From positions 1 to 34,933 of IMG/VR virus record IMGVR_UViG_2778261229_000002: a DNA stretch of 34,933 bases. One strand, 5' to 3'. A program made the position numbers and the translations under genes. The notes below the pieces were generated by a model, which saw only the letters and a list, made by a program, of their open reading frames with translations, ran no database searches and was not told the DNA's origin. Positions 976 to 21,792 of this stretch are shown here, piece after piece (position 1 is the first letter of the stretch; each line of letters starts with the position of its first letter). Origin of the DNA: a virus (lineage: Duplodnaviria; Heunggongvirae; Uroviricota; Caudoviricetes).

Positions 976-1233
976 ATGCAGCGGTATCACTATCCACTGG
1001 AAGACGGATTTACCGAAAGGATTCACACGCCGGGAGGCGTCAGGTCACTGGTGGAGGGATCGCACTTGATGAAATTACTCCGGGATCTCGATAAGGATGG
1101 ATTTAATGTCGATGGCCCACTTGCCGAACTGACTGCACTGATTAACTACGTCACCAGCTCACAGATGTCTATGCAGGATCTGCAAACACATCTCGACTAT
1201 TGTGCCGAACAATTACGAAAACAAACCACATAA
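976..1233 (+). CDS. Small protein paralogous to the C-terminal domain of the adjacent antirepressor; candidate SOS-inducible mini-antirepressor
   Basis: ORF-track frame 958..1233; I prefer the ATG at 976 preceded by GGAGAAG. Block HTPGGVRSLVEGSHLMKLLRDLDKDGFNVDGPLAELTALINYV...DLQTHLDY aligns by eye with [43 protein letters not shown]...DIQTHAEY in the 2692..3348 protein. Confidence 0.6.
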   Translation: MQRYHYPLEDGFTERIHTPGGVRSLVEGSHLMKLLRDLDKDGFNVDGPLAELTALINYVTSSQMSMQDLQTHLDYCAEQLRKQTT

Positions 1234-1255
1234 AGAAAAGGCCGCGAAAGCGGCC
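1232..1255 (-). terminator. Intrinsic terminator hairpin GGCCGCGAAAGCGGCC (T-run on the minus strand)
   Basis: Perfect 6-bp stem with 4-nt loop at 1240-1255. On the minus strand it is followed by TTTTCTTTATG, directly after the stop of the 1257..1763 gene. Confidence 0.5.
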
Positions 1256-1256
1256 A

Positions 1257-1763
1257 TTAACAGTCGTAAAATTCTGGGTCCCACAAACTTGCATCGCGCG
1301 GCATGGATTCTAACTTTTTCAGCCGCAAAATTCTGTCACACTCGACAACTAATTTTTGCTTCTGCTCGTCAATTTCTACTGTCTTATGCGCTGGTTCATC
1401 CCAATAATCCAGAAGGAAGGCATGGCGTTCAGATGTGACCAGATAAATCACATACACGTCACTGGTTGGGATCTTTTTATGCTTGTTAGTGGTCTTGTCT
1501 TTCTTCCCAGACGCCCAGTTTTTCCAGCATTGTTCCGTACCGCTCTCACCAAACTTGTCAGTATAGTTTCCGATGTTTAAGTGAACGTGGCGTATGTGAT
1601 ATTCCAGCATCTCTTTCGGTGGATCTCGAAACAGAGTGTCCTTTCCGAAATCCTTATGATGACCGTAGCGCCAGTGATCTATGAACGCGTTTTTGATAGG
1701 TATTAGCTCAGGGTCCTTCCCAAAAATTCCAGGGTGAACCAACCCCTGGAATTTATTCGGCAT
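1257..1763 (-). CDS. Hypothetical protein, 168 aa, His-rich (cargo cassette 1, distal gene)
   Basis: ORF-track frame 1257..1838; I prefer the internal Met (MPNKFQGLVHPG...) because the upstream gene stops at 1753, leaving a short gap. Contains YGHHKDFGKD...YHIRHVH. No family assignable from memory. Confidence 0.5.
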   Translation of the reverse strand: MPNKFQGLVHPGIFGKDPELIPIKNAFIDHWRYGHHKDFGKDTLFRDPPKEMLEYHIRHVHLNIGNYTDKFGESGTEQCWKNWASGKKDKTTNKHKKIPTSDVYVIYLVTSERHAFLLDYWDEPAHKTVEIDEQKQKLVVECDRILRLKKLESMPRDASLWDPEFYDC

Positions 1764-2268
1764 CGTCGTAGAGCTCCTGAGCCATGTCTTCAGCAGTGCG
1801 TGCAAACATCCTTCGAGAAATTGCATGCGATTTTTCAACAGACATCTTTGGTACTTCTCGCATTACAACCTCATGTGACGCTGTAGGCTTAAAAGATGAC
1901 TTATAATACCGCTTTATCATCTCAACTAATTGCTGCTTATCCTTGGAGCGTCCAGTTTCGATTAGCCTTGACTCGTAAGGTCGCATTATATTCGTTTGAC
2001 ATGAGGCACGATGAAGCTTATCTGCCAAGATTCCTTCAAAAGATGTGCCCCGGATTTTTAACAATGCCTCATGCTGGTCGTATTCAGTGATGAACATAAC
2101 CGGGTATTTTTGCTCAACTTCTTCATCATGAATCCTGATGGCATTGGCAGTTGCTATGGCAGCAGCATAAGCGGCTGCTTCAATCACCATCTTTTTCTCT
2201 TTTTCTTTTTCAGACTTTTTCAAGGTCAAGCGTCTATGCCTCATCGCTGCAACTCTCTTCGTGTTCAT
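1753..2268 (-). CDS. Hypothetical protein, 171 aa (cargo cassette 1, proximal gene)
   Basis: ORF-track frame 1753..2280 begins with TTG; I prefer the ATG at 2268 (MNTKRVAAMRHRR...) preceded by GGGGGTG. Basic/acidic low-complexity N-terminus (KKSEKEKEKK). No recognisable family. Confidence 0.5.
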   Translation of the reverse strand: MNTKRVAAMRHRRLTLKKSEKEKEKKMVIEAAAYAAAIATANAIRIHDEEVEQKYPVMFITEYDQHEALLKIRGTSFEGILADKLHRASCQTNIMRPYESRLIETGRSKDKQQLVEMIKRYYKSSFKPTASHEVVMREVPKMSVEKSHAISRRMFARTAEDMAQELYDDAE

Positions 2269-2279
2269 GGGCACCCCCA

Positions 2280-2327
2280 ACTACCTCTAGGGTAAACATT
2301 CTATCGAAAGTATACGCATACTGGCAA
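2280..2327 (-). promoter_or_regulatory. Promoter for cassette 1 (TTGCCA-18 bp-TAGAAT on the minus strand) with degenerate operator ACTACCTCTAGGGTAAA
   Basis: Reverse complement of 2298-2327 gives -35 TTGCCA and -10 TAGAAT with an 18-bp spacer. The operator-like palindrome at 2280-2296 sits over the predicted start site. Confidence 0.45.
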
Positions 2328-2376
2328 AAAAATAGGCAGGCATTTTCTGAAATGGGATCAATCAAACCACATAGGG

Positions 2377-2421
2377 TTGAAATAACGTGAGCTATGCATT
2401 TATTATTACCTTTACGGTAAA
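2377..2421 (+). promoter_or_regulatory. Rightward promoter (TTGAAA-18 bp-TATTAT) overlapped by operator ATTACCTTTACGGTAAA
   Basis: Hexamers at 2377-2382 and 2401-2406; operator at 2405-2421. Reads toward the structured leader and ant. Confidence 0.45.
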
Positions 2422-2691: not shown

Positions 2692-3348
2692 ATGAACGCT
2701 CAACTCATCCCCGTATTCAACGGCACTATATCTAACGAAACAGCCCTACTTTGTAATGCCCGCGATCTGCACGCTTTTTTAGGTGTTAAAAAGGTGTTTG
2801 CAGCATGGATTACAAATCGCATTTCAGAATACGAATTCATTGAAAATCAAGACTATATTTTGCTTTCCAATTTGGGAAAGCAAACATCTGGTAGAGGCGG
2901 CCACAACCGCAAAGAGTACCACCTCACCCTTGATACAGCCAAAGAGCTGGCGATGGTCGAGCGTAACGAAAAAGGTCGCCAGGTACGACGCTACTTCATT
3001 GAATGCGAGAAACGTTTAAGACAACAAGAAACAAAAGTGGAGAAGGTCTTGTCAGGCTTCATGCCAGCCATTATGGAGGCGATCAAGCTGGAAGACAAAA
3101 AAGAATACAGTGCCCCACTGAAGCCTGGCTACCGCAGTCTGATTCATTCTCCGTCTGGTGTTCTCGGCCTGACGGAGAACTCACTGCTGATGAATCTGCT
3201 GAACCAGTTACAGGAAGACGGGCACGACGTATCGGGCGCGGCGGCGGAGTTGACCACCATGTTCTGCTACATCGTCGGTGTGAGCAAATGCCTGCGTGAT
3301 ATCCAGACGCACGCGGAGTACATCAACGACAAAGCAGGGTTCTTCTGA
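2692..3348 (+). CDS. ant: Phage antirepressor (AntA/AntB-type N-terminal domain plus C-terminal domain)
   Basis: N-terminal block LIPVFNG...[35 protein letters not shown]...[33 protein letters not shown] matches the AntA/AntB antirepressor family as I remember it. GGAG lies 8 nt upstream of the ATG. Confidence 0.7.
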
Positions 3349-3456: not shown

Positions 3457-3666
3457 ATGGGATTTTGGTTCGCTCGTACAAAAACGAGGGATAATGCACC
3501 CAGCCCTCAGGCAAAAAATGCAGAAGTTCCGGCGTCAGCGCAGGTTAACAAGCGTGGTGGAGTATATATCTCATCACAGCAAATTTCTGAGCTTCCTGAG
3601 GTTAAGGAGATGCGTCGTCTCGCTGCTGCAATTGTTAAACAGGATCTTGCCACTGTAAGGAAGTAG
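3457..3666 (+). CDS. Hypothetical small protein, 69 aa (cargo cassette 2, first gene)
   Basis: Strong RBS GAGGAGGAG 3-11 nt upstream of the ATG. Stop TAG at 3664-3666 shares G3666 with the GTG start of the next gene. Confidence 0.55.
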   Translation: MGFWFARTKTRDNAPSPQAKNAEVPASAQVNKRGGVYISSQQISELPEVKEMRRLAAAIVKQDLATVRK

Positions 3667-4532
3667 TGTTGCTAGCTCTTCTAATTATCCCAATCCTGGT
3701 TAGCGGTTATATTATGATAACCGCTAACCAGTATCATTATTTCCGTTTATACCGACACGAAGGCCAGCTTCTTTATATGAAAGTAGCGGCACTAGGTACA
3801 TATTGCCTTGTTGCATCAGTAATAATTGCAGCCGCTATAAAATATAAATGGCCTGATTTTCACCTAGTTCACGATATGGTGGAAACTTTTAATGTAACAT
3901 CAAAACCAGAAACAGATAGAATTTACATGTGGCTGCTTCTTCTCTCAGCCACATCCATTTGCTTCTCTTTGTGTTATGTGTCTGTTGTGTGGGTGAAAGA
4001 TTTTCTTCTTGGTTGTTTTTATAAACGTGATATTTACGAGCAAAAAACAGAGGCAATGAAGGCCAGAGTACTGCGAAAAACTTACTCGCAAGGTTCTTTA
4101 GACTTACTATTGCTTGATGCTATTGAATCGGATCCTAAACGACCAATGTTGATTACTTTATCATCAAACAAAGTGTATGTTGGAATAATAAATGGTTCTG
4201 GTGAACCAACGGAAAATCAGGGTCCGCATCAGCACATATCTTTTGTTCCTTTAATGTCAGGATACAGGAACAAAGAAAACTTATCTGTCACATTCACTAA
4301 TGCTTATCCAGGAGAAATACAGGTCAAGCGGACTGCAGCAATAAGAGGAATTAGCAGAAAGAAAGTGCCAGGACTTGAGATCATGGTGTCTATTGACGAA
4401 ATAAGTTATATATCATGGTTTGATTTTGAAGTATATAAAGCAACAAATAACAAAGTAGAATCCAGGGGGCACGTTATTCGTGTTACCAAAAATGGAAGAA
4501 ATATATATCAAAGAAATAGCAAAAAAGAATAG
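3666..4532 (+). CDS. Hypothetical membrane protein, 288 aa, three N-terminal TM helices plus a soluble C-terminal domain of about 170 aa (cargo cassette 2)
   Basis: Hydrophobic segments LLALLIIPILVSGYIMI, VAALGTYCLVASVIIAAAI and IYMWLLLLSATSICFSLCYVSVVWV. Coding region is visibly AT-rich compared with flanking phage genes (by eye, not computed). Start could instead be the internal ATG about 40 nt downstream. Confidence 0.6.
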   Translation: MLLALLIIPILVSGYIMITANQYHYFRLYRHEGQLLYMKVAALGTYCLVASVIIAAAIKYKWPDFHLVHDMVETFNVTSKPETDRIYMWLLLLSATSICFSLCYVSVVWVKDFLLGCFYKRDIYEQKTEAMKARVLRKTYSQGSLDLLLLDAIESDPKRPMLITLSSNKVYVGIINGSGEPTENQGPHQHISFVPLMSGYRNKENLSVTFTNAYPGEIQVKRTAAIRGISRKKVPGLEIMVSIDEISYISWFDFEVYKATNNKVESRGHVIRVTKNGRNIYQRNSKKE

Positions 4533-4552
4533 CCCGCGCCGCGGGCTTTTTT
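4531..4552 (+). terminator. Strong intrinsic terminator (GCCCGCG hairpin followed by TTTTTT)
   Basis: GC-rich palindrome overlapping the TAG stop of the 288-aa gene, followed by six T. Confidence 0.7.
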
Positions 4553-4624
4553 GTAGACGAAACAAAAGTCAGTGCTACACTCATTGACGCCACATCGAGG
4601 TGGCTTATAGATGGAAATGTCACA

Positions 4625-4786
4625 ATGAAAAAAGCATTTGCTGCACTGTTCGTTTTGTTGTCTCTGGTAGCTTCAACTCAGGCCTTTGCCGGTCGTTGTC
4701 AGCACGACAGCGATACTGCCGCTGACGGCTCCCGCTGCGGTGGGCGTTCTGCGGATTCCCGCCCGGGCGGCGGTGGCATTCGTTAA
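4625..4786 (+). CDS. Small secreted peptide, 53 aa, with predicted signal peptide
   Basis: Translated by hand: MKKAFAALFVLLSLVASTQAFAGRCQHDSDTAADGSRCGGRSADSRPGGGGIR. Absent from the ORF track because it is under 60 aa. Candidate promoter TTGACG (4584-4589), 17 bp, TATAGA (4607-4612). No clear RBS. Confidence 0.4.
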   Translation: MKKAFAALFVLLSLVASTQAFAGRCQHDSDTAADGSRCGGRSADSRPGGGGIR

Positions 4787-4808
4787 AAACAAGGCCGCGA
4801 AAGCGGCC
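4784..4808 (-). terminator. Second copy of the GGCCGCGAAAGCGGCC terminator hairpin (T-run on the minus strand)
   Basis: Hairpin at 4793-4808; on the minus strand it is followed by TTGTTTTTAACG, directly after the stop of the 98-aa membrane-protein gene. Confidence 0.5.
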
Positions 4809-4809
4809 T

Positions 4810-4821
4810 GTGACATGTCAC
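4810..4821. repeat. 12-bp perfect palindrome GTGACATGTCAC (copy 1 of 3)
   Basis: Identical 12-mers at 4810-4821, 22023-22034 and 24324-24335. This copy overlaps the stop codon of the 4818..5114 gene. Confidence 0.6.
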
Positions 4822-5114
4822 GTTCCTTTTCTGAATGATAGCCGTTCGAAAAATGATGACATTCCACCGCAGACAATAGCAAAGATGATCCCACCAAAGA
4901 AGAGAAGGCCAGCCTGCCACCACTCCCACCGCCATACATCCACAGCACCAACCATACCAACAATCGCTCCAACAAATGGAATATAGCTCACGATGAAAGC
5001 AATGGGGGCTGCAATTATCCAGTGCAATCCCCACCATGATTCAAGCCCAGCCATAATTGCTGCCAACTGAAAAAGGCCAACGACGATATAAACAATGAAT
5101 CCTATCGCTTGCAT
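4818..5114 (-). CDS. Small integral membrane protein, 98 aa
   Basis: ORF track. At least three hydrophobic helices and a Trp-rich segment (VWRWEWWQ). Confidence 0.5.
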   Translation of the reverse strand: MQAIGFIVYIVVGLFQLAAIMAGLESWWGLHWIIAAPIAFIVSYIPFVGAIVGMVGAVDVWRWEWWQAGLLFFGGIIFAIVCGGMSSFFERLSFRKGT

Positions 5115-5126
5115 GTAGTCACCTAT

Positions 5127-5300
5127 TTACCCAGTAAAAATCAGAGGCCTCCCCTCAATAAGGCTTGCAACAAGAACTATTCCCTGCACAACAAAGATGA
5201 ACCAGCAAATAGCTTGAGTCTGAGGGTTAAGAAAATATTTGTAGCGGTCAATAAATAACAACCCACCAGAAATTATCACACTCAAAATAATTAAAAACAC
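5127..5300 (-). CDS. Small hydrophobic peptide, about 57 aa, two predicted TM helices
   Basis: Hand-translated from a GTG at 5298-5300 preceded by AGGAAG: ...FLIILSVIISGGLLFIDRYKYFLNPQTQAICWFIFVVQGIVLVASLIEGRPLIFTG. Under 60 aa, so not in the ORF track. Start codon is uncertain. Confidence 0.3.
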   Translation of the reverse strand: MFLIILSVIISGGLLFIDRYKYFLNPQTQAICWFIFVVQGIVLVASLIEGRPLIFTG

Positions 5301-21715: not shown

Positions 21716-21792
21716 GTGGCATTAGCTCAGTTAGACAGAGCAACCGCCTTCTAAGCGGTTGGTCGCAGGTTCGAATCCTGCATGCCACGCCA
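21716..21792 (+). tRNA. tRNA-Arg (anticodon UCU), 77 nt, argU-like
   Basis: Cloverleaf folded by hand: acceptor GTGGCAT/ATGCCAC, D-stem GCTC/GAGC, anticodon stem ACCGC/GCGGT with loop CTTCTAA, T-arm GCAGG-TTCGAAT-CCTGC, discriminator G and encoded CCA. Anticodon loop and T-arm are identical to E. coli argU as I recall it. Confidence 0.85.

Follow-up and report, generated by a model that had tools for sequence, protein, structure and literature searches.

The 34,933-nucleotide (nt) stretch analysed here (the window, positions 1 to 34,933 of the IMG/VR virus record IMGVR_UViG_2778261229_000002) belongs to a phiV10/epsilon15-like (Uetakevirus-type) Escherichia coli prophage and carries a cassette of two small minus-strand genes that we call geneA and geneB. 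We consider it probable, at roughly three chances in four, that this cassette is a type II toxin-antitoxin module and an optional insert of the phiV10/epsilon15-like E. coli prophage. Judged from its sequence and its predicted structure, geneB belongs to the YafO family as a divergent, long-form member and has a fold like that of RelE/HigB, and sequence comparisons make geneA the likely antitoxin, from an undescribed family in which a conserved tail is combined with interchangeable bodies. The two genes have the generic type II arrangement, being small, adjacent and co-directional, with a conserved pairing. An earlier note on this DNA had proposed a toxin and a partner carried as cargo in a variable slot next to the tail-fibre gene, and the family and fold of geneB together with its pairing in 80 of 80 loci uphold that proposal; the two intact co-directional minus-strand reading frames of 171 and 168 amino acids reported there were also recovered. 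On this reading the cassette is fairly ordinary in kind, a toxin-antitoxin cargo of the expected sort and not a new nuclease system; what is new is the variety of antitoxin.

1753 to 2268, minus strand: geneA, 171 amino acids, putative antitoxin; intact open reading frame (ORF) from the ATG at 2268 to the stop at 1753, with the invariant Met9 (2244) as an alternative start.
1257 to 1763, minus strand: geneB, 168 amino acids, long-form YafO-family (RelE/HigB-fold) toxin; intact ORF from the ATG at 1763 to the stop at 1257.

The identity of geneB is supported by several lines of evidence. The matching gene in E. coli genomes is already labelled YafO family toxin in RefSeq, and the identical sequence is so named by its sources, so the earlier statement that neither protein could be placed does not hold for geneB. 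The Pfam model YafO_toxin (PF13957) hits geneB with an E value of 0.004 and 17.6 bits, against a gathering cut-off of 25; it is matched at E ≤ 0.01 by 32 of the 33 long-clade members (best E 2.9e-6) and is precomputed for some relatives. Using hhalign, a 33-sequence long-clade profile that was built without any canonical YafO was compared with a profile of 25 canonical YafO sequences. The two aligned with 89.8% probability and an E value of 1.8e-6 over 109 columns, covering positions 15 to 130 of 138, and the homology to canonical YafO thus spans nearly the whole domain. BLASTP matched geneB to K-12 YafO at an E value of 0.003, and the two proteins have four motifs in common (FGKD/FGRD, RHVHL/AHIHL, PTSD/RTSD and PAHK/EAHK, geneB form first). 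At 31% identity (E 2e-23), geneB also matches gp44 of TL-2011b, a protein that carries the annotation YafO family toxin. The ratio of non-synonymous to synonymous substitution rates (dN/dS) of the toxin is 0.02-0.05, which indicates that geneB is under constraint. YafO has been described as an mRNA-cleaving BECR-fold toxin encoded downstream of its antitoxin (PMC2814082; PMC11980606), and in K-12 it inhibits growth via translation-dependent mRNA cleavage (PMC2814082), an account that has been questioned in part (PMC11980606).

The AlphaFold2 model of geneB is confident (predicted local distance difference test, pLDDT, 92.7; predicted template modelling score, pTM, 0.88) and has the RelE/BECR-type toxin fold, its best structural matches being the mRNA-cleaving HigB and RelE toxins. 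These data bear on two other identities for the protein. A metal-dependent DNA nuclease effector of the HNH/EndoVII type had been suggested from the blocks YGHHKDFGKD and YHIRHVH, both of which are present in geneB; the protein is histidine-rich, H36 and H61 are invariant in the long clade, and the model places a strand-strand-helix arrangement around them. However, the histidines of GHH and HxRHxH form part of the YafO motifs, no such nuclease is found among the structural matches, and the model does not set an HNH motif in a beta-beta-alpha metal fold, which leaves the proposed core without support and makes this identity extremely unlikely. The second identity, a gyrase poison like ParE or some other protein of the RelE/ParE superfamily that is not an RNase, would have the same general fold; we judge this very unlikely, given that the sequence relationship is specifically to YafO, that the top structural matches cleave mRNA and that conserved His, Arg and Tyr residues such as those of geneB typify the RNases of the superfamily. 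There is no solved YafO structure, and a PDB sequence search with the toxin profile gave spurious matches only (a designed repeat protein). A peptide-pattern scan of GTDB genomes found no relatives.

Comparison with characterized systems places the YafO-like toxin next to a partner of a different kind. The E. coli K-12 YafN-YafO system has a homologous toxin, as indicated by the hhalign result and the FG[KR]D, H[VI]HL, TSD and AHK motifs, and it has the same antitoxin-then-toxin order with genes that closely abut or overlap. K-12 YafO has 132 amino acids, whereas the 168-residue geneB carries an insertion of about 25 residues and a C-terminal extension of about 25 residues, the two being about 26% identical. 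YafN-YafO lies in the SOS-linked dinB operon and the geneA/geneB module in a prophage. YafN, of the Phd/YefM family, is unrelated to geneA, whose profile aligned to that of YafN with an hhalign probability of only 0.2%, so geneA is not recognizable as a Phd/YefM-type antitoxin. Since the antitoxin is of a different, uncatalogued family, the module is not a YafNO orthologue. The ribosome-dependent mRNA endonucleases of the HigB2/RelE type (for example Vibrio cholerae HigB2, PDB 5mje) are only 15% identical to geneB and were not detected by Foldseek, and the higBA order is toxin first, whereas here the antitoxin comes first.

The argument for geneA as the antitoxin rests on its two-part structure, which is laid out as follows.

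1756 to 1863, minus strand: conserved C-terminal tail of geneA, residues 136-171, VMREVPKMSVEKSHAISRRMFARTAEDMAQELYDDAE; putative toxin-neutralising module.
1864 to 2241, minus strand: geneA body, residues 10-135; variable, exchanged between alleles and modelled by AlphaFold2 with low confidence.

geneA belongs to no Pfam, NCBIfam or PADLOC family and falls in phrog_9503, where the function is given as unknown. Its N-terminus is basic and of low complexity (RHRRLTLKKSEKEKEKK), consistent with the charged low-complexity N-terminus described earlier. Ten partner variants searched against Pfam gave no significant match, only weak sub-threshold hits at E 0.03-0.05, and in a PDB sequence search geneA had spurious hits only, with no relative of solved structure. 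The AlphaFold2 model of geneA is helical, and two C-terminal helices are among its better-predicted parts. The geneA tail is near-invariant across proteins whose bodies are unrelated. Partner proteins range from 59 to 183 amino acids and all share a homologous C-terminal tail of about 35 residues; typical endings are ...PKMSVEKSHAISRRMFARTAEDMAQELYDDAE, ...KMSFTEACALSRELSDSREERLLRASFDGPE and ...VTMTKDHASRVSRAFFDSRNNKENYEFVCVAE, and the tails of different subclades are homologous by BLASTP. A profile search of 1.84 billion cluster representatives returned only 20 family members. The nine new family hits retrieved all end in ...ELYDDAE and have mutually unrelated bodies.

Tail and toxin change together. 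Tail identity follows toxin identity with r = 0.945, and pairs whose toxins are at least 90% identical have tails at least 88.6% identical and bodies down to 27%. In the DNA alignment of E. coli alleles, the promoter and the first nine codons are conserved, and about 400 nt of the geneA body have diverged between near-identical flanks. The tail differences in these aligned alleles are all synonymous and the toxin gene is nearly identical; across alleles, 0-3 non-synonymous changes were counted in the tail. The dN/dS values are 0.02-0.08 for the geneA tail and 0.28-0.52 for the body. One locus (L012) has toxin DNA identical to that of the window and a geneA body with a synonymous divergence (dS) of about 1, which locates a recombination breakpoint within geneA. 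By these sequence measures, strong purifying selection acts on both tail and toxin, and the geneA body is highly variable and swapped by recombination.

The pairing of the two genes was examined in an IMG/VR scan that yielded 80 loci with toxin homologues. An upstream gene on the same strand was present in all 80, and in 77 of them its end runs 11, 14 or 26 nt past the toxin start; in the other three (L056-L058) the upstream gene ends 46 nt ahead of the assigned toxin start, which looks mis-set. The 11-nt overlap is found in subclades 1a and 1b, and the other subclades have 14 or 26 nt. Klebsiella oxytoca prophages have the same pair arrangement, and in one subclade the whole partner, at 59 amino acids, is essentially the tail with a short basic N-terminus. 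Taken on its own, the absence of geneA from every known antitoxin family, its lack of relationship to YafN and the fast evolution of its body would fit an independent cargo gene, with the toxin inactive or neutralised by other means. The constant upstream partner, the overlap with the toxin start in 77 loci, the co-variation of tail and toxin under strong purifying selection and the 59-residue partner all argue against that alternative, which we regard as highly improbable.

The junction of the two genes adds a further set of features that relate to toxin translation. The earlier note had the genes about 5 bp apart, but they overlap.

1753 to 1763, minus strand: geneA/geneB overlap of 11 nt (ATGCCGAATAA), read from the sequence; it contains the geneA stop and the geneB start.
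1774 to 1778, minus strand: geneB Shine-Dalgarno sequence AGGAG, inside geneA and 10 nt ahead of the geneB ATG.
1724 to 1754, minus strand: perfect 11-bp hairpin (AAAUUCCAGGG-N9-CCCUGGAAUUU), starting inside the stop codon of geneA and spanning codons 4-13 of geneB.

Across seven distinct sequences, 90.9% of the cells in the hairpin alignment are paired, against at most 63.6% when the partners are slid, and three pairs show double (compensatory) changes. The K. oxytoca alleles carry two 5'-arm substitutions that change the protein (K to R and F to Y), and synonymous substitutions in the 3' arm compensate for them. Together with the 11-nt overlap and the AGGAG site, the hairpin and its three compensatory pairs suggest, with moderate support, that translation of the toxin may be coupled to that of geneA. 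As separate observations on this junction, all tails of the 1a/1b type end in ...ELYDDAE, and the sequence CGACGATGCNGAAT(A/G)(A/G), at 1753-1770 of the window, is almost invariant among the homologous loci. The final codons of geneA use the same bases as the opening codons of geneB, which puts the stretch 1753-1770 under a double coding constraint. In minimum-energy folds of the E. coli sequences (1704-1783, minus strand), UGGCUCAGG beside the geneB Shine-Dalgarno sequence pairs with CCUGAGCUA, which lies some 50 nt inside geneB. Such a pairing would sequester the toxin Shine-Dalgarno sequence; it is absent from the Klebsiella fold.

The cassette is a discrete insertion in the prophage. BLASTN breakpoints relative to phiV10 define it as one unit:

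1234 to 2399, no strand assigned: inserted unit (moron) relative to phiV10.

The source element shares about 97% nucleotide identity with phiv142-3, vB_EcoP_ZX5 and phiV10 across 79-94% of a 24-kb backbone segment, and it is thus phiV10/epsilon15-like and not the P22-type phage that had been supposed. In phiV10, 25 bp stand in place of window positions 1234-2399, and the indel extends exactly from the terminator to the promoter, giving a unit of 1.17 kb and confirming the earlier description of a self-contained unit. Conservation of the flanks extends to phiV10, TL-2011b and others, and of the 19 phage records that match, EC.W1-9 is the only one with the cassette itself. It is present in 58 of 5426 complete E. 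coli genomes (approximately 1%), in every case on the chromosome. With its own promoter and terminator and its presence or absence between conserved flanks, the cassette has the features of a phage moron. It is an optional cargo insert of the phiV10-like prophage and dispensable, phiV10 and most relatives being without it. Like the morons of lambdoid-type phages, it is a promoter-gene-terminator unit between conserved flanks; it differs in carrying two genes, a putative toxin and antitoxin, whose expression in the lysogen is a prediction. Homologues of the tail-fibre, ORF19-like and Ant genes lie within 3 kb in 66-76 of the 80 loci, and a single phage lineage, at one cargo hotspot, accounts for all long-form YafO loci of the IMG/VR scan.

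The signals that delimit the unit were also evaluated:

2298 to 2327, minus strand: predicted sigma-70-like promoter, TTGCCA (2327-2322), an 18-nt spacer and TAGAAT (2303-2298), with 10 of 12 matches.
2309 to 2322, no strand assigned: imperfect palindrome AGTATGC/GTATACT, candidate operator, in the -35/-10 spacer; 6 of 7 positions match.
1230 to 1255, minus strand: intrinsic terminator, GGCCGC-TTTC-GCGGCC (1255-1240), a 6-bp all-GC stem with a 4-nt loop, followed by the T-rich tail TTTTCTTTAT.

The promoter and the terminator hairpin at 1255-1240 are both where the earlier note had seen them. Promoter-like sites are not in excess in the region (3 found against 3.8 expected in shuffles). The predicted promoter is conserved across E. 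coli alleles, and a diverged K. oxytoca homologue has TTGCCA, an 18-nt spacer and TACACT upstream. The earlier note had also called the cassette operator-controlled, from a palindrome over the predicted transcription start; only TACC-N5-GGTA is found there, and the best inverted repeat of the promoter region is the AGTATGC/GTATACT pair in the spacer. This pair is not supported as an operator: it is at chance level in shuffles, strain 2/0 has a changed form of it within an otherwise unaltered promoter, and it is not kept in K. oxytoca. The promoter is unchanged between alleles whose geneA bodies differ completely, and the promoter region gave no sequence evidence for autoregulation.

Several results weigh against the assignment of the cassette as a toxin-antitoxin module with coupled translation. 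geneB scores under the Pfam gathering threshold and has no NCBIfam match. The earlier note had suggested profile and structure searches; the hhalign profiles did link geneB to YafO, but a Foldseek search of the geneB model against PDB and BFVD returned nothing significant. No experimental work on this long-form YafO clade was found in the literature. Neither protein matched PADLOC-DB 2.0 at E ≤ 1, and by that comparison the cassette has no direct tie to a catalogued defence system. On the side of the putative antitoxin, no DNA-binding domain is detectable in geneA, the AlphaFold2 model is poor (pLDDT 63.8), and 28% of dinucleotide shuffles contain an inverted repeat at least as good as the candidate operator. 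The toxin-start hairpin is restricted to subclades 1a and 1b and absent in more distant subclades, the folding energy of its region is unremarkable (z = -1.5), and its covariation comes from just seven distinct sequences.

If the cassette is a toxin-antitoxin module, transcription of both genes would run from the promoter of the cassette to its terminator. By analogy with the YafO and RelE families, the free toxin would cleave translated mRNA and arrest growth, and the conservation of the acidic geneA tail suggests that it is this part that binds and neutralises the toxin. Ribosomes finishing geneA may open the hairpin over the first geneB codons, and such coupling would stop toxin synthesis when the antitoxin is not translated. 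The least certain step is the biological role, which could be abortive infection or exclusion in the lysogen once an incoming phage depletes the labile antitoxin, or else stabilisation of the prophage. We lean towards defence over prophage stabilisation, the main alternative, because the hotspot position, the alternative cargo, the frequent second paralogous cassette and the fast-changing antitoxin body would all fit defence or exclusion in a lysogen. A more specific version, in which the variable, recombination-swapped body serves as a sensor or decoy for components of invading phages and the tail as a universal toxin plug, so that a modular defence is swapped among phiV10-like prophages at a single hotspot, is unlikely.

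A role in the phage lytic cycle was considered as well, with geneB acting as a host-shutoff or mRNA-turnover RNase and geneA as its timer or chaperone. The genes are on the strand of the late structural genes, and the family appears confined to this phage lineage, as seen in the 66-76 loci with the three neighbouring homologues. Against these points, the cassette is dispensable in phiV10 and most relatives, it has its own promoter and terminator, and the same slot holds alternative cargo, a pattern usual for lysogen-expressed genes and not for core lytic functions; we therefore find the lytic role improbable. The toxin-antitoxin assignment, if correct, gives a likely function to a gene pair of approximately 1% of complete E. 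coli genomes and many phiV10-like prophages, one of the two genes being currently annotated just as hypothetical. It also defines a small undescribed antitoxin family with a conserved C-terminal tail on interchangeable bodies. Should the module protect the lysogen against other phages or stabilise the prophage, phage-host dynamics in clinical E. coli would be affected.

The genomic setting was examined for the nature of the slot. The cassette lies between the tail-fibre gene and a c4/isrK-ant region. On one side it is flanked by an 85-amino-acid, epsilon15 ORF19-like ORF (976-1233, plus strand), with the tail-fibre gene beyond. This ORF is 42% identical (E 7e-16) to the C-terminal 74 residues of the Ant antirepressor (2692-3348, plus strand) and is in effect a stand-alone copy of the C-terminal domain of Ant. 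On the opposite flank, Rfam matches above the gathering score identify isrK (2457-2533, 67.7 bits) and C4 antisense RNA (2558-2642, 61.2 bits), both on the plus strand and directly upstream of the AntA-domain antirepressor gene at 2692-3348. A promoter-like site (2422-2450) stands ahead of these RNAs, and a terminator-like hairpin (2511-2527) lies within the isrK match. Together with ant, the region 2422-2642 resembles a c4/ant control region of the P1 type, here within a phiV10-like prophage. Since the isrK-like and C4-like RNAs lie upstream of an antirepressor gene, the cassette slot adjoins an immunity-like region of the P1 c4/ant type. The comparison with the sieA/immI slot of P22 that had been drawn earlier is correct as to such a neighbour, but the region is of the P1 type and the analogy is only loose.

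Relatives carry different cargo in the same slot. In TL-2011b (L003), a different sequence of about 1.1 kb (4156-5244) occupies the same insertion point; its sole annotation is a misc_feature, "similar to hypothetical protein", and the terminator of the window is shared up to position 1255. A second, paralogous YafO-family cassette is frequent in relatives (Combat2C1, strain 2/0, EC.W1-9 and TL-2011b). These pairs, which include TL-2011b gp45/gp44, have toxins of the same family at 31-46% identity, a partner that overlaps the toxin gene and ends in a homologous tail, and a location in the region between the tail-fibre and structural genes. They are encoded on the opposite strand from geneA/geneB, with the ant gene in between, and also differ in the size of the partner (59 or 108 amino acids against 171), in overlaps of 14 or 26 nt and in having no toxin-start hairpin. 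In the window, the sub-slot that holds this second cassette in the four relatives is filled by alternative cargo (3457-4532): a 69-amino-acid ORF (3457-3666, plus strand, phrog_5739) abuts the gene for a 288-amino-acid protein (3666-4532, plus strand, phrog_3630). Neither protein has a Pfam or PADLOC match, and the larger one has a hydrophobic N-terminus and is apparently membrane-spanning. Elsewhere within the prophage, the window contains a tRNA-Arg gene with anticodon tct (21716-21792, plus strand).

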